Source of the DNA: Candidatus Asgardarchaeum abyssi
GTDB taxonomy: Archaea; Asgardarchaeota; Asgardarchaeia; Asgardarchaeales; Asgardarchaeaceae
Length of the DNA: 14,025 bases
Assembly (NCBI GenBank): GCA_040225955.1
Contig: JBECUL010000051.1
Span: forward strand, 1 to 14,025
Direction: 5' to 3'
Within the stretch, counting starts at the first letter, position 1; each line of letters opens with the position of its first letter. Made by a program: the position numbers and the translations under genes. Shown piece after piece: positions 1 through 7,779 of the stretch. The notes beneath the pieces are model-generated. The model searched no databases. It saw only the letters and a program-made list of their open reading frames with translations, and had not been told where the DNA came from.

Positions 1-74
1 AAATTCATGGAGGATTGAGGCGGATCTTGGTGTCTAGGGAGCGTACTCATTTCGAAAATAGTGCGGAAGTACTG
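1..74. mobile_element. Partial copy (cut by window edge) of the ISH3-like MITE family A, inverted relative to the 7628-7766 copy
   Basis: Positions 20-74 align to the reverse complement of the left end of 7628-7766 at 49/55 columns (5 transitions, 1 gap) and end in the same TIR, TGCGGAAGTACTG. Confidence 0.85.
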
Positions 75-81
75 ATTCATT

Positions 82-96
82 AAAAAAATTTAAGTA
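82..96 (+). promoter_or_regulatory. Putative BRE+TATA box (AAAAAAA TTTAAGTA) for the small membrane protein gene
   Basis: Purine run followed by TTTAAGTA at 89-96, 64 nt before the ATG at 161. Motif evidence only, in AT-rich DNA. Confidence 0.4.
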
Positions 97-160
97 TAGT
101 AATCTAAAAAAGAAAAGATGTGCCCTATTAACATAGAACATAACTAAATAGGTGGATTAT

Positions 161-361
161 ATGAACAGGATTAAAAGCCCAATATCAAACATTATTAACT
201 CAAAGGTATTCATGTTTGTTAATATAGTATTATTTCTACTGTTCTTGAGTGTCATAGTAATGTTTGGAAAAGCGATGGAGGGATTAATTGGATTAATTTC
301 TGTTTTTATGTTAGTTATAACACTTGTATTTATAGTAGATTCGTTCATATCAAGATTATAA
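161..361 (+). CDS. Small hypothetical membrane protein (66 aa, two predicted TM helices)
   Basis: SD AGGTGG (150-155) precedes ATG 161, so the GTG at 152 is probably part of the SD. Two hydrophobic stretches: VFMFVNIVLFLLFLSVIVMF and LIGLISVFMLVITLVFIV. Confidence 0.6.
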   Translation: MNRIKSPISNIINSKVFMFVNIVLFLLFLSVIVMFGKAMEGLIGLISVFMLVITLVFIVDSFISRL

Positions 362-372
362 GGCACGTCAAG

Positions 373-1095
373 TTAATCTGATTGAGATTTTCTTATTTTT
401 TTAAATCTTTTCTCTGACAGATTTATTTCATTCTCTATGGAGGTTATTATCTTAGAGGCTACTGTCCAAGTAGCTAATGGCTCAGGGTCTATAGAATATA
501 CGTTATTGGCAGCTTCGTAGAATCTTCTTGAAAAGTCACCATGTGGAAAGCCACCAATTAAAATGCATGGATTTTCATATTCGAGAAGTTCTTTTGCTAT
601 TAATGTTGGTGGTTTAAAAGCGCCTTTTTCGGAGAATAGGAAAACTGGTCCGTTAATTTTAGATATTAAATCATCTATCGATATGTCCTCCTTTTTAATT
701 AATATTTCACCACTATCCGAGATAATAATACTCTTCTTTAAGAGCTGAACCATTAATCCTTTAAAGCGTTGATATGTTTTGGGAATTCTAATTTTTGGAT
801 TAAACCAAAAAACTTCGTCATTAATTGTATGAACATAAACATTAAGGTAACCTTCTCTATTTATAGGTGAGTCAAAAATATACAACAGAGTGGTGTGTAA
901 TATATCGGGTCTACCCCTCTTTTCTGAATACGGTAATTTTTTTATAAACATTCGATGATATGAGACTTCAAGAAGCATATTATTTGGTGATTTACCAAGT
1001 TTTCTTGCAATTTTTATGATCTTTGGCTCGTGTAGTAGATGTTTAGGTATCAACTCAAGGCTTGTTTCAATAATTATGAAATAAATTCTCTTTAT
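373..1095 (-). CDS. nep1: SSU rRNA pseudouridine N1-methyltransferase Nep1/Emg1 (SPOUT)
   Basis: Motifs SLELIP, RGRPDILH, RIPKTYQRFKGLMVQLL and IGGFPHGDF. The start is uncertain: the ORF-track extension to 1266 overlaps rpp21 antisense, and an SD-like GGTGGG at 1104-1099 points to ATA at 1095. Confidence 0.93.
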   Translation of the reverse strand: MKRIYFIIIETSLELIPKHLLHEPKIIKIARKLGKSPNNMLLEVSYHRMFIKKLPYSEKRGRPDILHTTLLYIFDSPINREGYLNVYVHTINDEVFWFNPKIRIPKTYQRFKGLMVQLLKKSIIISDSGEILIKKEDISIDDLISKINGPVFLFSEKGAFKPPTLIAKELLEYENPCILIGGFPHGDFSRRFYEAANNVYSIDPEPLATWTVASKIITSIENEINLSEKRFKKIRKSQSD

Positions 1096-1132
1096 AATCC
1101 CACCAACCAGATCATTCGTATATGGTGAGCTA

Positions 1133-1471
1133 ATGATACCTAAAAGAATGAAAAGAAAGGAATATATTAAAGATATTGCAAGCCAGAGGATAGACATATT
1201 ATTTAATCTAACAAAAAATGTAATCAAAGAGAATTTTGAATTGGCCTCAAAGTATGTAGAGCTCATCAGAAGAATAGCTATGAAGGCTCAAGTTCGCCTG
1301 CCCCGCTCAAAGAAGATGTGGATCTGTAAAAAATGTAATACTTTACTTATTCCTGGATTTACTGCAAGAGTCAGAATAAGATGCAATCGAATGACGCACA
1401 TCGTAATTACTTGTTTAAATTGTGGAAATATAAAGAGGTACCCAGTACAAAAATCTAGTCCTTCTGGATAA
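1133..1471 (+). CDS. rnp4: RNase P protein component 4 (Rpp21/Rpr2)
   Basis: IASQRIDILF helix, zinc ribbon CKKC...CLNC, LLIPG..ARVR and terminal KRYP. SD GGTGAG at 1124-1129. Confidence 0.95.
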   Translation: MIPKRMKRKEYIKDIASQRIDILFNLTKNVIKENFELASKYVELIRRIAMKAQVRLPRSKKMWICKKCNTLLIPGFTARVRIRCNRMTHIVITCLNCGNIKRYPVQKSSPSG

Positions 1472-1500
1472 AATCCAAATTTTTAAGTTACGATTAAAGA

Positions 1501-1642
1501 TGCTTTGTTGACCAAAACATTGTTATATTGAAGTTATGAAATCGGAATTTAGAGCAAGTTATTATGATATCGCATATAACACATTTATCAGCGATATTAT
1601 TATAACATTACGCAACCATTCATTGAATTGTTCAACAAAGCA
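1501..1642. mobile_element. MITE family B, 142 bp, with 8-bp target-site duplication ATTAAAGA
   Basis: Perfect 11-bp TIR TGCTTTGTTGA/TCAACAAAGCA, extendable to 18/22 matches. It is flanked exactly by ATTAAAGA at 1493-1500 and 1643-1650, and is too short to encode a transposase. Confidence 0.88.
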
Positions 1643-1650
1643 ATTAAAGA

Positions 1651-1664
1651 GTAACCTTTAAATA
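1651..1664 (+). promoter_or_regulatory. tRNA-Gly promoter (BRE + TATA TTTAAATA)
   Basis: Consensus archaeal TATA at 1657-1664, 30 nt upstream of the mature tRNA 5' end. Confidence 0.7.
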
Positions 1665-1694
1665 ACCCTTAAGGTTAATTAAACGATGATGCAT

Positions 1695-1769
1695 GCGGGC
1701 GTCGTCTAGTCTGGACTAGGACGTCGGCCTTCCACGCCGATGACCCGGGTTCAAATCCCGGCGCCCGCA
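1695..1769 (+). tRNA. tRNA-Gly(TCC), no intron, CCA not encoded
   Basis: Acceptor GCGGGCG/CGCCCGC, anticodon arm TCGGC-CTTCCAC-GCCGA, T arm CCGGG-TTCAAAT-CCCGG, discriminator A. Confidence 0.97.
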
Positions 1770-1780
1770 TATAATCCTTA

Positions 1781-1789
1781 TTCTTTTTT
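1781..1789 (+). terminator. Oligo-T terminator after tRNA-Gly
   Basis: TTCTTTTTT begins 12 nt after the tRNA end. Confidence 0.45.
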
Positions 1790-1893
1790 GAGATCACAGA
1801 AGGCCAACAATAGTTTTTTATTCTTTGAATTAAAAATATAAGCAAATCTAAGAGCCTATTTAGGACATTATAGCATCATAATGGTGATAATAA

Positions 1894-3282
1894 ATGAAGC
1901 TATTTAACCTCACCGAAAAGGAAATTTACGATGCAATTGACAACGGCGATGTTACAGTTGCGGTATATGGTTTAGGCAAAATGGGCCTTCCTTTAGCCGT
2001 AATATTTGCAAATCGCGGACTAAATGTTATTGGTGTTGATATTAATGATGATATTGTTAGAATGATAAATTCTGGACGATCGCCATTGATCGACGAACCG
2101 GGTGTTAGTGATAAAGAGATAAATCGACTAATAAAAAACGGTAAACTTGAAGCAACTACAGATTCTATTAACGCAGCAAGGAAAGCAGATGTTATCATTG
2201 TTATAGTTCCTTCTCTAATAGATGAAACGAAAAATTTGAAACTTAACTACGTTTTTGATGCGGTCGATGCAATAGGTAAGGGGTTAACTAAAGATTGTGT
2301 TGTAATTACCGAATGTACATTACCACCTGGAACTACAAGTGGACCAATTAAAGAAATTTTGGAAGAAAGATCCGGCCTTAGGGCGGGTATAGATTTTGGT
2401 TTAGCCCATAGTCCAGAGCGAACAATGTCTGGACAAGTTATAAAGAATGTTGTTGAGGATTATCCAAAAATAGTTGGAGGTATTAATAAGAAGTCTACAA
2501 ATGTTGTTGCTGCCTTTTATAGGAAAATAGTTAAAAAAGGTGTAATTGCCGTTAGTGACTGCACAACAGCTGAAGCTATAAAAGTTTTCGAGGGCGTTTA
2601 TAGAGATGTTAATATAGCGTTAGCAAACGAATTAGCACTTTTAGCTGAGAAGATAGGTATTGATATCATTGAGGCTATTCAAGGTGCTAATAGTCAACCG
2701 TACTCACACATACATATGCCAGGGGCTGGAGTTGGCGGACATTGCATTCCAATATATCCTTACTTTTTACTTAATTTAGCTAATAAATATGGCCTTGACA
2801 TGAAGATTGTATACAGTGGTCGTAAGCTAAACGAGCAAATGCCATACCATATTGTTGACTTAGTGATTGAGGCTTTAAATGAAATAGAAAAACCTGTAAA
2901 AAACTCAAAGATTGGAGTTTTAGGTGTTGCATATAAAGGTGGTGTTAAATCAACATATTTAACTCCTGCAAAACCGATCATTGAGAAATTAAAGAGATTA
3001 GGCGCAAATATTGTTATTTACGACCCTCTATTTACCAAAGAGGAAATTGAAGAAGAATTTGGAGTACAAGCGGTATCTACGATGGAAGATGTATTTAAAG
3101 ATTCAGATTGTGTCATAGCTATAACTGATCATAAAGAGTACTTAAAAGAAAAATTACATGAATGCGTTTCTCTTATGAAAGAAAAAGCTGCTATTGTTGA
3201 TGGCAGATATATTTTTGATATGGATATTGTTAGGAAGAAAGGAAAGGTATATCTCGCTGTTGGACGGGTAATGCATAAATAA
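1894..3282 (+). CDS. wecC: Nucleotide-sugar dehydrogenase (UDP-N-acetylmannosamine/glucosamine 6-dehydrogenase, WecC/WbpA type)
   Basis: Rossmann motif VYGLGKMG, SPER, catalytic AIKVFEG..RDVNIALANEL and PGAGVGGHCIP, C-terminal GVAYK and VDGR. SD GGTGA upstream. Exact substrate is not determinable from sequence. Confidence 0.88.
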   Translation: MKLFNLTEKEIYDAIDNGDVTVAVYGLGKMGLPLAVIFANRGLNVIGVDINDDIVRMINSGRSPLIDEPGVSDKEINRLIKNGKLEATTDSINAARKADVIIVIVPSLIDETKNLKLNYVFDAVDAIGKGLTKDCVVITECTLPPGTTSGPIKEILEERSGLRAGIDFGLAHSPERTMSGQVIKNVVEDYPKIVGGINKKSTNVVAAFYRKIVKKGVIAVSDCTTAEAIKVFEGVYRDVNIALANELALLAEKIGIDIIEAIQGANSQPYSHIHMPGAGVGGHCIPIYPYFLLNLANKYGLDMKIVYSGRKLNEQMPYHIVDLVIEALNEIEKPVKNSKIGVLGVAYKGGVKSTYLTPAKPIIEKLKRLGANIVIYDPLFTKEEIEEEFGVQAVSTMEDVFKDSDCVIAITDHKEYLKEKLHECVSLMKEKAAIVDGRYIFDMDIVRKKGKVYLAVGRVMHK

Positions 3283-3347
3283 CGTACATCGACTACATTC
3301 TTCATTATTAAACATCAAATAGAAATGCTTAAAAGAGAAAGATATTT

Positions 3348-3355
3348 TTTATAAA
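3348..3355 (+). promoter_or_regulatory. tRNA-Lys(-trm5) TATA box TTTATAAA
   Basis: Consensus TATA 24 nt upstream of the mature tRNA 5' end. Confidence 0.65.
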
Positions 3356-3379
3356 ATAGCAAATATGCCTATAAGCGGT

Positions 3380-3453
3380 GGGCCCGTAGCTCAGACAGGC
3401 AGAGCGACGGGCTCTTAACCCGTTGGTCGGGGGTTCAAATCCCCCCGGGCCCG
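3380..3453 (+). tRNA. tRNA-Lys(CTT), no intron, CCA not encoded
   Basis: Acceptor GGGCCCG/CGGGCCC, anticodon arm ACGGG-CTCTTAA-CCCGT, T loop TTCAAAT, discriminator G. Confidence 0.97.
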
Positions 3454-3472
3454 TAATTTTTGGGTGGGAAAT

Positions 3473-4531
3473 TTGGTTCATTTTGTAGGAGTAAAAACCA
3501 AAAGTGCTGAGTTTTTAAGAAGGAAACTAAAAGAGAGGAATCTACTTTTAACTGGTTTTGCTGCATTTCAAAAGAACGGAAAAATCTATTTTCCCATAAA
3601 AAATTCGGAAGAAGTAAGAAAATTATTGGAGACTTTAAATCTTAACGGAGATATAATAGAGTCGGAGATATCTCAGAAAAAGAAAAAGAGAGGTAAACTT
3701 TATGAATTAATAGCAGATAAAATTCCAGAGACGCTCATTAAATATATTCCAAGATCATTTGATGTTATAGGAGATATATGTATAGTAGAGATGAATGAAG
3801 AAATTTGGCCATATCGAGAAATAATAGGCCGAACAATTGTTGAACAATTTAAAAATATAAAATCTGTTTATGCAAAGGGAGGAAAAGTATCTGGCGATAT
3901 TAGAGTACGGCCATTAATACATGTATACGGTGAGAAAAAGACTTTGACTATTCATAGAGAGAATAATTGTATTTTCTATGTTGATGTTGAAAAAGTGTAC
4001 TTTAGTCCACGATTAGCCACAGAGCATATGAGAGTTGCTAAGCAAGTTAAAGATGGTGAGATAATTGTTGATATGTTTGCAGGAGTTGGACCTTTTTCGA
4101 TTTTAATAGCCAAAATGGCTAACGCAAAGATATACGCTATTGATAAAAATCCTTCAGCCATAGAGCTCCTAAAAAGAAATATTCAAATAAACAAACTCAA
4201 GGGGACCGTTATTCCAATATTAGGAGATGCTAGGGATGTTATAAGAAAACAGTTGGAGAAAAATGTAGCAGATAGAGTTATCATGAATCTCCCACTAAGT
4301 GCTGATAAATTTTTAGATGTTGCATTTTACGCATTGAAAAACGAGGGGATTATTCATTTTTACACTGTAAAGAGGGAAAATGAACCCTACGATAGAATTT
4401 TTGATTTTCTAAAAAGCAAAGCAGAAGAAGAGGGATATAAACTAGAAAGAGTATTAACATGCAGAAAAGTAAAAGAAATTGCACCTCATGAATTTCAGAT
4501 TGTTGTAGATTGTTTTTTCAAGCTTAAATAA
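3473..4531 (+). CDS. trm5: tRNA (guanine37-N1)-methyltransferase Trm5 (Trm5b/c type, Met-10+ family)
   Basis: SFDVIGDI, HRENNC..VD..KVYFSPRL, SAM motif DMFAGVGPF, DRVIMNLP, and an N-terminal D1 domain. Start is TTG 3473 after SD GGGTGG, with GTG 3464 as the alternative. Confidence 0.9.
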   Translation: MVHFVGVKTKSAEFLRRKLKERNLLLTGFAAFQKNGKIYFPIKNSEEVRKLLETLNLNGDIIESEISQKKKKRGKLYELIADKIPETLIKYIPRSFDVIGDICIVEMNEEIWPYREIIGRTIVEQFKNIKSVYAKGGKVSGDIRVRPLIHVYGEKKTLTIHRENNCIFYVDVEKVYFSPRLATEHMRVAKQVKDGEIIVDMFAGVGPFSILIAKMANAKIYAIDKNPSAIELLKRNIQINKLKGTVIPILGDARDVIRKQLEKNVADRVIMNLPLSADKFLDVAFYALKNEGIIHFYTVKRENEPYDRIFDFLKSKAEEEGYKLERVLTCRKVKEIAPHEFQIVVDCFFKLK

Positions 4532-4534
4532 TCT

Positions 4535-4960
4535 TTAACTGGATTCTACAATGATTGTTATTTTGACGGTAACCTTTGGATTTTTAAGCATTTTAATAAG
4601 TCCTCTATTGAGATCTATCGCTGCTTTATCAGCTTTTATCATCAAAGTTCTTGGGCAAATATAAGTTGATTTTCTACAAACAATATCCGTAGGGTGAGAG
4701 AGTGAAAGGTCTGGGTGACCGAATCCTTTAATGGTTTCAAATATATCTCCTACTTTAATTATCATCTTCACTATAGAATCTCTTTTCCGAATAGCTTTTT
4801 TAATATCATTGGGTATGTCTTTTATTCCACACTCAGAATTAACAGCAATTATACAATCGCCTCGGCGGGTTAAGTGACTCTCCTTTGTTATTTCTAAAGT
4901 AGTCTTATGAGTTGCTAAGATATTATAGTGACCTCTTGCATAGAAAGTAAATGATAGCAT
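4535..4960 (-). CDS. DUF371 domain protein
   Basis: Signature [20 protein letters not shown].HLT.RGDCII and [22 protein letters not shown] 4960 follows GTGAT, with GTG 4969 as the alternative. Confidence 0.9.
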
Positions 4961-4994
4961 AACAATCACTTTTTATAGACATTTTATATCAAAT

Positions 4995-5696
4995 ATGAAT
5001 AGGTGTAAGAACTTGAAATCTTTTACTGAGGAAAAGAAAAGGATAGTAAAATATCTAAAACGTGCTGGGTTTGTGAGAAGTGATAGAGTTATTAATGCAT
5101 TTCTAAAGGTGCCCCGCGAAGAATTTGTTCGTCCAGAATATAGAAAACACGCTTATGATGATACACCTCTTCCTATAGGATGTGGGCAAACAATTTCGGC
5201 AATACATATGGTTCTTATGATGTGTGAATATCTAGATTTAAAACCAGGGCATAAAGTTTTAGAGGTGGGTACTGGATCTGGTTACCATGCAGCAATTATT
5301 GCGGAGCTAATTACAAGTGAAGATGGTAAGATAAAAGGGCACGTTTATACTATTGAGAGAATACCAGAATTGGCAAAATTTGCAACTGAAAATCTAAAAA
5401 GGACAAAGTATGATGATAGAGTAACTATAATTGTAGGTGATGGAACCTTAGGATATCCCGAAAAGGCGCCGTATGATAGAATTTGTGTAACTGCTGCCGG
5501 ACCAGATGTTCCAAAACCGCTTATTGAACAATTAAAGAATGGAGGAAAATTATTAATTCCTATAGGAGCTCAATTTTACTGGCAAGAGCTCTATCTAATT
5601 GAAAAAGATTTGGAAGGAAAAATTAAGAGAAAAAATTTAGGTGGAGTCGCTTTCGTTCCGCTCATCGGGAAATATGGCTGGAATTCAAAGGGGTGA
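4995..5696 (+). CDS. pcm: Protein-L-isoaspartate O-methyltransferase
   Basis: [42 protein letters not shown], and FVPLIG. The start may be TTG 5013 after AGGTGT. Confidence 0.96.
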
Positions 5697-5703
5697 GTAT
5701 ATT

Positions 5704-6732
5704 TTGGGTGTTAAGTTAAAAGATTTAATATCACCAAAAATTATCAGTTTTGATGATTTAACTAACAAGTATATTGCAATAGATGCATTAAATGCAATAT
5801 ACCAATTTATGGCAATAATAAGACAACCAGATGGCACACCTTTGATGGATAAGGAAGGAAACGTAACAAGTCATTTTAGCGGACTATTTTATAGAACAAT
5901 TAACCTGATAGAATTTGGAATACGACCAGTTTATGTTTTTGATGGAAAACCGCCAGATCTAAAATTACAGACTATTCAAAAACGAAGTGAAATAAGAGAA
6001 CAAGCAAGAGAAAAATGGCTTGAGGCATTACATCGAGGAGATATTGTTGTAGCAAGAAAATATGCACAAGCAGCCATAGAAATTAATGAAATGGTAATAC
6101 TTGAAAGCAAAGAATTGCTAGATGCTATGGGCGTACCTTATGTACAAGCACCATCTGAAGGAGAGGCACAGGCTGCATATATGGTAAGAAAAAATGACGT
6201 TTGGGCGTCGGCAAGTCAAGATTATGATTCATTACTTTTTGGATCCCTAAGACTTGTTAGGAATTTAACTCTAAGGAAGAAAAGAAAAGTTGCTGGTAAA
6301 GAGGAATTAAAGGAAGTAGATTTAGAATTATTAATACTCGATGATATTCTAAAGAACTTGGGAATTACACGAGAACAGTTAGTAGACATTGCAATTCTAA
6401 TAGGAACAGACTATAACGAGGGAATAAAAGGTATTGGGCCGAAAAAGGCCTATAATCTAATTAAAAAGTATAGTTCTTTAGAGAGAATAGCTAAATTAAG
6501 AATAATCGAGATAGGTGACATTCCCGTAGATGAGATAAGAAAAATCTTCTTGAACCCAGAAGTTACAGATGATTATAAAATAGACTGGAAAGCACCAAAT
6601 CCAGAGAAGATAAAGGAAATATTAGTTGAAAGACATGACTTTTCAACAAGTAGGGTTGAAAAAGGTATTGAAAGGTTGCAGACTGCTTATGAAAAAACTA
6701 AACAAGCAAGCCTAGAAAGCTGGTTTGGTTAG
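5704..6732 (+). CDS. fen: Flap endonuclease 1
   Basis: MGVKL N-terminus (TTG 5704 after SD GGTGAG), IDALNAIYQF, VFDGKPP, APSEGEAQAA, SQDYDSLLFG, GTDYN.GIKGIG, and C-terminal PIP box QASLESWF. Confidence 0.97.
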   Translation: MGVKLKDLISPKIISFDDLTNKYIAIDALNAIYQFMAIIRQPDGTPLMDKEGNVTSHFSGLFYRTINLIEFGIRPVYVFDGKPPDLKLQTIQKRSEIREQAREKWLEALHRGDIVVARKYAQAAIEINEMVILESKELLDAMGVPYVQAPSEGEAQAAYMVRKNDVWASASQDYDSLLFGSLRLVRNLTLRKKRKVAGKEELKEVDLELLILDDILKNLGITREQLVDIAILIGTDYNEGIKGIGPKKAYNLIKKYSSLERIAKLRIIEIGDIPVDEIRKIFLNPEVTDDYKIDWKAPNPEKIKEILVERHDFSTSRVEKGIERLQTAYEKTKQASLESWFG

Positions 6733-6823
6733 CGACAAACTTGTTATCTAATATGGCTATAAATTTTGCGTTATCTAGCTATTCCTATTTCATATATTTT
6801 AATTTAATGTTCCCAAGCATATT

Positions 6824-7552
6824 TTAAATATAAATATTGTTGCTATCTGATCTTTCTCTTTCTATAAGTTTTTGCTGTTGATCAATTATTGCTTGAATCT
6901 CTCTTTCTATTTCTTTAGCATCTTCTAACAATTGTTTTGTATCTAAAGTTATGTTATATATTTTTGATAAAGCGGATATCGCAACTGCTGCAGCTCGTGG
7001 ATCAGGACGCCCTCTCTCCGCATAAGCTAGGAGGGCATATGCTGGAAAATTATAAATTTCAAAGTAACTTAAAATTAGTGCAAGAGGACCGTATATACCT
7101 AAATTTTCATCTAGAAAGTTATAATTAAGTTTTTTAGCTCTTTCTATTGCAGAAGACGTGCTAACGATTTTTAGATCGTCATCATCTTTAAATTCATTAT
7201 CCAGACCGCCAATTAAAATGGCTTCTTTAAATTGATTTTTTATTACCCACTTAGCTAATCCATATGTTATTAAATTCCATTCCATTTTCTGCAATGGAAC
7301 ACGCTCTATAAAAATTATAAATGAATCCAATTGATAGAGCTCATATGGCGTTAAGATCCCTTGCTTCCCCATATAAGCAGAGGGTGACATGAACTTCGTT
7401 TCCACAAAACCTATCCTTTTTGCATTACAGAAATCAACTAGATGCTTTGTAGCAATGTATCCAACTTGCCCTATATGACTACGAAAACCAGTAATGAAAA
7501 TTTTATTTTTAAAATCAACTTTTTCGATGAGCCTAATTTTCATTTTTGACAA
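6824..7552 (-). CDS. PAC2-family proteasome assembly chaperone (PbaA/PbaB-like)
   Basis: FITGF...GQVGYIA, ILIGGLD, PDPRAA, LLEDAKEIE, and C-terminal HbYX motif IYI. SD GAGGTGA precedes TTG 7552 (alternatives GTG 7561, ATG 7543). Confidence 0.88.
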   Translation of the reverse strand: MSKMKIRLIEKVDFKNKIFITGFRSHIGQVGYIATKHLVDFCNAKRIGFVETKFMSPSAYMGKQGILTPYELYQLDSFIIFIERVPLQKMEWNLITYGLAKWVIKNQFKEAILIGGLDNEFKDDDDLKIVSTSSAIERAKKLNYNFLDENLGIYGPLALILSYFEIYNFPAYALLAYAERGRPDPRAAAVAISALSKIYNITLDTKQLLEDAKEIEREIQAIIDQQQKLIERERSDSNNIYI

Positions 7553-7605
7553 AGACTTCACCTCAGTTAGATAAATTTACATTTTTGATAGAATTAAAAT
7601 TCTGG

Positions 7606-7620
7606 CTTTTAAATTTTCTT
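7606..7620 (-). promoter_or_regulatory. BRE+TATA (AAGAAAA TTTAAAAG) for the PAC2 gene
   Basis: Purine-rich BRE-like heptamer plus TATA, about 53 nt upstream of the start codon. Confidence 0.55.
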
Positions 7621-7627
7621 AGGATTT

Positions 7628-7766
7628 CAGTACTTCTGCATTATTTTCGAAATGAATACGCTCCTAGACACCAGGATTCGCTTGGTCCTTATAAAATTCG
7701 GAATCTCCAATAAAAAATAATTTTTCGCAGCCAATACGGATTCCCACCTATGGTGCGGAAGTACTG
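7628..7766. mobile_element. MITE family A, 139 bp, ISH3-like termini
   Basis: TIR CAGTACTTCTGCA / TGCGGAAGTACTG (12/13), flanks GATTT and AATTT (5-bp TSD with one mismatch), and a second copy at 1-74. Terminal CAG with a 4-5 bp DR is characteristic of the archaeal ISH3 family. Confidence 0.88.
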
Positions 7767-7779
7767 AATTTTAATTTTA

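Follow-up and report, generated by a model that had tools for sequence, protein, structure and literature searches.

In this archaeal genome, insertion sequences (IS) and MITEs of several families lie at fixed offsets from a flanking BRE/TATA motif that is identical with the motif of bona fide promoters. They obey orientation rules, the same sites were hit repeatedly, unfilled alleles already bear the motif, and distant relatives follow the same rule. We consider it highly probable that some reader anchors the targeting on BRE/TATA, and regard it as an even call that this reader would be the TBP/TFB complex and not the transposases' own DNA reading.

Promoter-side junctions in the window

The window, the whole 14,025-nt stretch analyzed here, is contig C51 of a 2.6-Mb metagenome-assembled genome of 189 contigs. 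A preliminary description of this DNA held that three elements end 14 nt before a TATA-like box, and when we re-read the junctions this was borne out in 3/3. On the plus strand, the element end at 74 is followed by ATTCATTAAAAAAA (75-88) and TTTAAGTA (89-96), and the end at 1642 by ATTAAAGAGTAACC (1643-1656) and TTTAAATA (1657-1664). On the minus strand, the end at 7628 is followed by AAATCCTAAGAAAA (7627-7614) and TTTAAAAG (7613-7606), upstream of a PAC2-family gene. The 12/13 flank match TAA(A/G)AAAATTTAA reported between the two family-A copies is also correct.

All three elements had been called MITEs, which holds for those at 1501-1642 and 7628-7766 but not for the copy at 1-74 (plus strand). 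Since this copy is 98.6% identical over its 74 nt to the end of the full-length ISH3-like element IS-A and the contig breaks inside it, it is probably IS-A rather than a MITE, cut by the contig start so that only END1 is left (the IRR side, downstream of the transposase gene). The promoter-side copy of its 5-bp target duplication would be ATTCA (75-79, plus strand), a length taken from the MITE copies and from the reverse-complement pairing of IS ends. The A-rich BRE-like run (83-88) and the TATA-like box that complete this junction (83-96, plus strand) have a leave-one-out score of 7.5, above the 99th percentile of the null, and the box faces a small ORF (161-361) for which a Pfam search gave no match.

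MITE-B (1501-1642, plus strand) is a 142-bp derivative of an IS5-family IS with 22-nt inverted ends beginning TGCTTTGTTGA. It lies between the distal (1493-1500) and promoter-side (1643-1650) copies of the 8-bp duplication ATTAAAGA, both on the plus strand. The predicted promoter that follows (1651-1664, plus strand), with gtaacc at the BRE position and the TATA box, would serve a tRNA-Gly(TCC) gene identified with ARAGORN (1694-1770, plus strand). Its TATA begins 37 nt before the tRNA 5′ end, within the range of −36 to −46 usual for the tRNA genes of this genome.

At the third junction, MITE-A (7628-7766, minus strand; 139 bp, inverted ends CAGTACTTC(C/T)GCA) presents END1 at 7628 to the predicted PAC2 promoter (7606-7619, minus strand), which consists of a BRE-like agaaaa (7619-7614) and the TATA-like box and scores 7.7 in the leave-one-out test. 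The gene downstream (6824-7561, minus strand) matches PF09754 with E = 3.5e-35. The promoter-side copy of the 5-bp duplication, GATTT (7623-7627, plus strand), has a partner AATTT at 7767-7771 (4/5 match). This MITE-A copy was also found in metagenome contigs L022 and L026.

Identity of families A and B

The two families had been described as unrelated. They do belong to different IS families, ISH3-like and IS5, but not to wholly unrelated ones, as both transposases fall in the DDE_Tnp_1 clan. MITE-B has 16 full copies with 94-100% identity, all with 8-bp duplications, and its ends are identical to those of IS-B, a 1070-bp element encoding a 325-aa transposase. This transposase (P0001) scores 263 bits on the IS5 model NF033579 (cut-off 140), which places it in the IS5 family; PF01609, PF13737 and PF13612 are also recorded for it. 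It is 78% identical to a transposase fragment on contig C22, and the IS that encodes it (L027, 345-1414) bears both IS-B end types of this genome. Judged by these sequence matches, family B is an IS5 family with an 8-bp duplication, resembling the IS903 and ISH1 groups in IS-B size, model score and duplication length, and the MITEs of both families share their parents' ends.

MITE-A, with about 5 full copies, inverted ends in common with IS-A and a 5-bp duplication, likewise qualifies as a MITE. The full IS-A is 1942 bp long in metagenome contig L023, and its 575-aa DDE_Tnp_1 ORF runs towards END1. The transposase matches PF01609 (E = 7.6e-9) and its best model is NF033541 (ISH3; E = 1.9e-26), at 92.9 bits, below the 225-bit cut-off. 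The ISH3 family has, in the ISfinder description, a target duplication of 4-5 bp. The family-A duplication is 5 bp, perfect on contig C14 (GGTCT) and with a 4/5 match at two MITEs; moreover, for 11/17 of the IS-A END1 flanks an END2 flank on a different contig supplies the matching reverse complement. Family A thus appears to be ISH3-like by its transposase domain, best model and duplication. About 300 distant relatives of the transposase match in two stretches. IS-A belongs to a rare outlier lineage of long elements (1.9-2.3 kb), of which a set of 1.84 billion representatives contained only three relatives, at 32-34% identity.

Fixed offsets across the genome

We built a promoter matrix from the family-A END1 flanks and scored each flank leave-one-out against random intergenic sites, taking the 95th percentile of this null as the threshold (5% pass). 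The threshold was exceeded by 16/23 of the A END1 flanks (Mann-Whitney p = 1.7e-10) and by 2/25 of the END2 flanks. When the matrix trained on A only was applied to family B against a two-sided null, 14/16 MITE-B elements scored above it (p = 5.8e-11). In both families the score peaked sharply at shift 0 and the signal collapsed when the offset was shifted.

The distance from element end to TATA start is 14 nt in family A and the related family C (ISH3-like, 5-bp duplication) and in family B (IS5 family, 8-bp duplication), with exactly 14 as the best offset in 16/19 family-A flanks and 19/35 family-B ends. In two further families whose transposases were not assembled it is 15 nt (family L; best offset in 6/11 L1 flanks) and 17-18 nt (family N, 8-bp duplication; best offset in 12/37 ends, a count reached in 0/400 simulations). 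An independent matrix, made from 35 tRNA upstream regions with no element nearby, placed above the 95th percentile a fraction of 0.76 of the A1 ends and 0.48 of the B ends (per end) at 14 nt, 0.73 of the L1 ends at 15 nt and 0.24 of the N ends at 17 nt; with this matrix the A2, L2, M, O, K, J and J2 ends were flat, with no peak distance. Five other repeat families of the same genome showed no offset peak. Where the two ends of a family differ, landing has a single orientation: A lands with the end downstream of the transposase gene (IRR) and L with the opposite end (IRL), while the symmetric MITE-B lands either way, with no orientation rule.

Fixed-offset TATA enrichment among genome-wide copies was the test on which the preliminary description had staked its proposal of promoter-anchored insertion just upstream of BRE. 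The enrichment proved strong and phase-specific, also with the independently built matrix, and therefore supports that proposal.

Flank motif and gene context

Across four families, C occupies position −7 in 29/53 flanks, against a background of 12-15% (p = 2e-11), and G or A is common at −6. The C(−7) is anchored to the TATA box and not to the element end, and it is also found in 9/26 element-free tRNA promoters. We take the BRE-like C(−7)/R(−6) to be positions contacted by TFB.

Among the 50 motif-positive ends, 45 face a gene start and 5 a 3′ end, compared with 0.47 and 0.25, respectively, for motif-matched random sites (binomial p = 4.9e-5). Ends just upstream of tRNA genes number six, versus 1.2 expected. 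From sequence and context, the target boxes are predicted to be promoters. For about a quarter of the motif-positive ends, crude gene calls place no co-directional gene in the next 300 nt. Two targets near tRNA genes are at −61 and −66, off the usual distance, so naked motif copies may also be hit.

Repeat hits, unfilled alleles and nested targets

At two loci the same 8-bp site was hit twice. The order on C9 is C-end, ATAATATC, MITE-B, ATAATATA and GTAAAA-TTTATTAA; on C22 it is IS-B end, ACTTTATC, MITE-B, ACTTTATC and GCAAAA-TTTTTAAC. These double hits indicate that only the promoter side is read. Two unfilled alleles in this genome already contain the motif, one at C18:5822|5823 (TTCAA-aacggaaga-TTAAAATG) and one at C46:2159|2160. 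At two further loci (C14, C24), N-MITEs lie 17-18 nt upstream of the internal TATA of a family-D repeat; promoters inside another mobile element are also targeted.

Comparison with known systems

In budding yeast, the Ty3 integrase is positioned by TFIIIB, that is, TBP plus the TFB homologue Brf1, and this TBP-containing, promoter-bound complex sets integration to the nucleotide. Ty1 and the Dictyostelium elements TRE and DGLT-A also land at tRNA genes; all of these are retroelements with integrases that land at or near the Pol III start site. The preference for tRNA genes is shared here, with tRNA promoters about five-fold over-represented. However, the elements of this genome are DNA transposons whose landing sites lie upstream of BRE, at genes of every kind, and their dependence on a host factor is putative.

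Among bacteria, the TnGBS ICEs, the ISLre2 family and the ISKra4 group carry Mutator-like 'p-MULT 3/4' DDE transposases (Brochet 2009; Guerillot 2014; PMC3942029). They insert 15-17 bp upstream of the sigma-A −35 box and spare the gene, in a conserved orientation with IRr beside the promoter that has been ascribed to unlike ends (PMC3942029). As in those elements, several distant families of DDE elements land here a short, constant distance upstream of a core promoter element, and IS-A also puts its IRR side next to the promoter. In contrast, the landmark here is the archaeal BRE/TATA and not the bacterial −35 box, the transposases belong to the DDE_Tnp_1 clan (ISH3-like and IS5) with neither being Mutator-like, and IS-L uses the opposite end and MITE-B either end. 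The archaeal p-MULT 2 element ISH6 duplicates an AT-rich AANATNTT target and has been speculated to favour promoter or intergenic regions in archaea (Guerillot et al., PMC3942029). In ISH6 it is the AT-rich motif that becomes duplicated, and no BRE/TATA register is reported; here the duplicated bases precede a BRE/TATA that stays intact.

In the literature searched we found no description of promoter-register targeting for the IS5 or ISH3 families, and no published report of promoter-aimed landing at a fixed distance in archaea. A small number of elements in bacteria and yeast are known to land in this way; here several families do so, 14 to 18 bases upstream of BRE/TATA.

Candidate mechanism and alternatives

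We propose that the transposition complexes of several DDE IS families, together with the MITEs they mobilise, would dock on BRE/TATA and join the element on its upstream side at a family-specific fixed distance. Promoter and gene would be left intact, a safe harbour, and the promoter-side duplication copy would regenerate the same target. The landing platform would most probably be promoter DNA that carries TBP and TFB and is bent by them, not the naked sequence. Guidance by TBP/TFB is the best fit and about evenly poised; this agent, whether acting as a guide or through the boundary of its footprint, is favoured indirectly, as one and the same BRE/TATA is the reference for families that differ in ends, duplication lengths and offsets, and as the shared motif includes the presumably TFB-contacted C(−7)/R(−6). 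The broader reading, to which we give slightly less than an even chance, is that several unrelated DNA-transposon families of this archaeon land on the TBP/TFB-bound core promoter, each at its own fixed distance upstream of BRE. This would be the archaeal equivalent of Ty3 integration as guided by TFIIIB, and would amount to a general strategy of mobile DNA in archaea that has not been described before.

A possible, though less probable, alternative is direct DNA reading: the sequence or shape of the junction between A-tract and T-tract (C-R-AAAA-TTTAAA) would be sensed by every transposase on its own, at a set spacing from the enzyme's active sites, TBP and TFB playing no role and the link to promoters being evolved or incidental mimicry of the consensus. 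The family-specific offsets fit this, as do the targeted motifs that lie off the canonical tRNA distance or have no called gene downstream, and the inheritance of the rule within the IS-A lineage. In TnGBS, ISLre2 and ISKra4, furthermore, promoter specificity accompanies a transposase sequence signature (PMC3942029). However, reading of the same roughly 15-nt signal, including the TATA-anchored C(−7)/R(−6), would have had to evolve separately in at least four families that differ in ends, orientation rules and duplications (5 and 8 bp). Moreover, the tolerated variants (TTTAAA, TTTATA, TATAAA and CTTATAAA) mirror promoter degeneracy, and promoter orientation is commoner in the targeted motifs than in motif-matched random sites. 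The offsets of 14, 15 and 17-18 and the bacterial signature precedent are, as observations, compatible with transposase-intrinsic reading.

Random or merely AT-biased insertion followed by selection is very improbable as an explanation; here a compact genome would retain only those copies that spare both the gene before them and the promoter after them, which would create an apparent association with promoters. The genome is indeed compact, about 84% coding by crude calls, and the gene upstream of IS-A usually ends (3′) 0-50 nt from the END2 side, which leaves little permitted space. Yet such filtering predicts a spread of distances above a minimum, as opposed to a single exact distance in most family-A flanks. 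Nor does it fit the absence of a peak in the five other repeat families, the almost exclusive use of one end by A and by L, the double hits on one 8-bp site, or the N-MITEs that keep the register at the internal promoter of a different mobile element. The preliminary description had cautioned that selection could enrich promoter-sparing insertions; given the phase-specific enrichment with the independent matrix, selection alone is not explanatory. Genomic copies are survivors, so the sample is filtered by selection.

That the motif belongs to the elements, their true ends lying beyond the inverted repeats or a flanking promoter being carried along by transduction so that the shared flank is homology, is scarcely credible: BLAST coverage of IS-A ends does extend a few bases into the flanks, but the target duplications abut the inverted repeats with the motif outside them, flank positions 1-7 and beyond 23 are unrelated among copies, the downstream genes are all different, and the unfilled alleles contradict it.

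If promoter-anchored insertion through TBP/TFB holds, archaeal IS would have a precise safe-harbour strategy that uses machinery common to archaea and eukaryotes, a parallel to bacterial elements that target sigma-A promoters and to yeast elements that target TFIIIB. It would explain IS and MITE positions in compact archaeal genomes, make element ends usable as free promoter markers in uncultured archaea, and predict displaced regulator sites upstream of dozens of genes. It would also offer a position-specific integration system testable with purified components. A direct test of the question is within reach: the target spans about 15 nt, the sequences of two transposases are available and the predicted cut positions are base-exact.

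Conservation in relatives

In the three distant relatives of the A transposase, which come from other metagenomes, an A-rich TATA-like box again lies 14 nt from the corresponding end, with 3/3 above the null at this end and 0/2 at the other. Among IS5 relatives in other genomes of the phylum, 2/3 have an end 14-15 nt from a BRE/TATA motif.

Element ends in the window

The genome is a 2.64 Mb metagenome assembly in 189 contigs (34% GC, 93% complete, 7.8% contamination), of which the window is one entire contig. The preliminary description had placed three MITEs here, each with an end 14 nt before a TATA-like box. The junction sequences bear out this spacing, and two of the three elements are indeed MITEs: MITE-B (1501-1642; 142 bp), with 22-nt inverted ends beginning TGCTTTGTTGA and a perfect 8-bp duplication ATTAAAGA, and MITE-A (7628-7766; 139 bp), with ends CAGTACTTC(C/T)GCA and a 5-bp duplication GATTT/AATTT. 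The third (1-74) is probably not a MITE but the end of a full-length insertion sequence, IS-A, truncated where the contig breaks; it shares 98.6% identity with the IS end. The IS-A end is followed after 14 nt by the TATA-like box TTTAAGTA (89-96), with a small ORF (161-361) downstream; at the same distance the MITE-B end is followed by the TATA box TTTAAATA (1657-1664) of the tRNA-Gly gene (1694), and the MITE-A end by the minus-strand TATA-like box TTTAAAAG (7613-7606), with PAC2 downstream. We found no exact match of the PAC2 protein in other assemblies, nor any PAC2 relatives among contigs of other genomes.

The MITE-B target has mirrored TATA-like boxes on both sides (1476-1500 and 1651-1664; TTTTTAA-gttacg-[ATTAAAGA]-gtaacc-TTTAAATA), but a promoter score and an associated gene are found for the right-hand one alone. 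Elsewhere, the longest reading frames of Nep1/EMG1 (373-1266, minus strand) and RNase P Rpr2 (1133-1471, plus strand) overlap head to head by 134 nt; since the Nep1 Pfam match begins at residue 63, translation probably starts more internally and the overlap is spurious.

Register of the insertions across the genome

Using BLASTN and end-motif searches we collected 23 unique flanks of END1 (the family-A end found at 7628), 25 of the opposite end (END2), 16 full MITE-B copies and ~10 parent-IS ends. Coverage-based repeat boundaries were abandoned in favor of the end-motif searches, as they overran into the flanks because the promoter motif is common to them. We also dropped a tally of 12-mers that recurred at a fixed offset from any of the matrix hits, since motif hits within repeats swamped it. 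The END1 flanks are A-rich at positions 10-14, carry T at 15-17 (18, 13 and 20 of the 23) and A at 18-20; the END2 flanks show no features.

We built a log-odds matrix from flank positions 9-24 of END1 and compared it with a null of 20,000 random intergenic sites. The check proposed in the preliminary description, fixed-offset TATA enrichment among genome-wide copies against such sites, came out strong and offset-specific. In a leave-one-out analysis, 16/23 END1 flanks exceeded the 95th percentile of the null (Mann-Whitney p = 1.7e-10), as did 2/25 END2 flanks, and 14/16 elements of family B, never used in training, were above a two-sided null (p = 5.8e-11). Exactly 14 nt was the best offset in 16/19 family-A flanks and 19/35 family-B ends, and the mean score collapsed when the window was slid by at least 3 nt. 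The orientation rule of family A is strong but not absolute: at C21:25892 and C73:166 it is END2 that lies 14 nt from a strong BRE/TATA.

Other repeat families behaved alike at offsets of their own. In family L (L1 ends GAGCACTTGTAAAAAATATGCC) the promoter-facing end, L1, peaks at 15 nt, which is the best offset in 6/11 flanks; depending on the matrix used, a fraction of 0.73-0.91 of the L1 flanks pass there, and the opposite end is flat. Family N (ends GGTAACAT, 8-bp duplication, 100-bp MITE) has 12/37 ends at 17-18 nt, a count matched by 0/400 simulations; this peak in its offset histogram made us discard it as a negative control. In the A-related family C (ends TAGTACTTCCGAAAAA), a TATA-like box lies 14 nt from one end of each of the three elements, one of which was read through a MITE-B insertion on contig C9. 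No offset peak was found in families M, O, K, J and J2, the last three of which look IS200/IS605-like. The IS-A gene is directed toward END1, so that IRR faces the promoter; in IS-L the arrangement is reversed, with the ORF beginning at the promoter-facing end.

The motif as a probable promoter

In front of its tRNA genes this genome has (g)aaaaa-TTTAAATA, and the TATA box begins 36-46 nt upstream of the mature 5' end. An independent matrix, trained solely on 35 tRNA upstream regions that were free of elements within 150 nt, gave every peak again (END1 0.76 at 14 nt, B 0.48 per end at 14, L1 0.73 at 15, N 0.24 at 17), and the remaining ends and families were flat. When the flanks of all four families were aligned on the TATA box, 29/53 had C at -7 against a background of 12-15% (p = 2e-11), with G or A frequent at -6. 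This C, also present in 9/26 element-free tRNA promoters, is fixed relative to the TATA box and not to the element end. The archaeal BRE consensus is cRnaAnt, and both positions fit it.

Motif-positive ends also point toward genes: 45 are oriented to a gene or tRNA 5' end lying within 300 nt and five to a 3' end, compared with fractions of 0.47 and 0.25 for motif-matched random intergenic sites (binomial p = 4.9e-5). Six ends lie directly upstream of tRNA genes where 1.2 were expected (p = 0.002).

Double hits and unfilled sites

On contigs C9 and C22 an earlier element (C and IS-B, respectively) ends 8 bp short of the BRE/TATA, and a MITE-B with its own duplication occupies that interval. The promoter-side duplicate thus stays a target, and reading is confined to the promoter side. 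Family D (C3:12950-13193 and ~35 further copies, e.g., C39:7036-7258 and C24:645-867) is a ~245-nt GC-rich repeat without inverted ends or duplication, which bears near one end GAAACAG-TTAAATA, a putative promoter by its sequence. Two 100-bp N-MITEs (C14:44376 and C24:873) lie 4-5 nt inside a family-D end, 17-18 nt upstream of the internal TATA, indicating that a mobile element's own promoter draws another element in the usual register.

Searches for IS-A DNA in 40 relatives and for the encoded protein across 300 genomes of the phylum gave no match beyond the window's own genome, so cross-genome tests were made on metagenome contigs. These yielded an IS-A junction, TTCAA-aacggaaga-TTAAAATG (contigs L023 and L025, two samples), and an IS-B junction, tcatcccc-gtaaaa-TTAAAAAA (L027). 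In this genome the corresponding sites, C18:5822|5823 and C46:2159|2160, contain no insertion and have the motif; the motif therefore predates insertion, and the population is polymorphic for the elements. L023 (Ga0209410_1013172) and L027 (Ga0190316_1028541) each join flanks from two loci across the IS (C2/C18 and C46/C9), with mismatched duplications, and are assembly chimeras or IS-mediated rearrangements.

Target choice

If DDE transposition follows the standard staggered-cut model, the two attacked bonds would lie upstream of the TATA start by 14 and 9 nt for A, 14 and 6 nt for B and ~17 and 9 nt for N, at, or just beyond, the upstream edge of the BRE. A TATA start near -30 would put the junction near -44, which is roughly where TBP/TFB footprints end on the upstream side. 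We favor a mechanism in which the transposition complexes would dock on the TBP/TFB-bound, bent promoter, because one and the same signal is chosen by families that differ in their ends, offsets, orientation and duplication length, and because this choice takes in BRE positions, tolerates variation as promoters do and follows promoter orientation. A serious rival is that each transposase reads the sequence or shape of the DNA directly. A complex prediction for the IS-A transposase together with TBP and the core domain of TFB scored 0.00, which counts neither for nor against docking. Peaks in some families and none in M, O, K, J and J2 mark the habit as element-specific and not general to surviving insertions, and selection alone is effectively excluded as the explanation of the promoter association. 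Hitch-hiking of the flank with the element is likewise effectively excluded; target duplications and unfilled alleles rule out the motif being part of the element.

Among described systems, the nearest are the Mutator-like elements TnGBS, ISLre2 and ISKra4 of bacteria, whose insertions lie 15-17 bp upstream of sigma-A promoters, IRr adjoining the promoter (PMC3942029), and, in eukaryotes, Ty3 at TFIIIB-bound Pol III genes; the present elements act like both but are members of neither. The preliminary description knew of no such account for archaeal IS elements, and our full-text literature searches likewise turned up no case in archaea of insertion in register with BRE/TATA; target sites and TATA go unmentioned in a 2026 survey of archaeal IS elements. 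What this genome contributes is four to five families side by side, together with families that serve as internal negative controls, sites hit twice, alleles still unfilled, and the argument from C(-7).

Autonomous elements and their relatives

Most contig breaks of the assembly fall inside IS-A, IS-B, IS-L, IS-N or IS200/605-like repeats (e.g., C14:1-357, C31:25411-25608, C7:1-201 and C18:1-77). IS interiors are absent from it, and transposase counts taken from it are therefore too low. A Pfam search of short IS fragments gave no useful match. IS-A is 1942 bp long (L023, 472-2413) and encodes a 575-aa DDE_Tnp_1 protein whose best match, below cut-off, is the ISH3 model. Its lineage is rare: a comparison with 1.84 billion representatives gave three transposase relatives, at 32-34% identity. 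Each of them has the inverted ends of IS-A, and the end downstream of its transposase gene is 14 nt away from an A-rich TATA-like box (scores 6.0, 8.0 and 3.8 vs a 95th percentile of 1.9); opposite ends scored -12 and -10. IS-B is a 1070-bp IS5-family element (NF033579, 263 bits), and of three IS5 relatives found across 300 other genomes of the phylum, two have a BRE/TATA motif 14-15 nt from an end.
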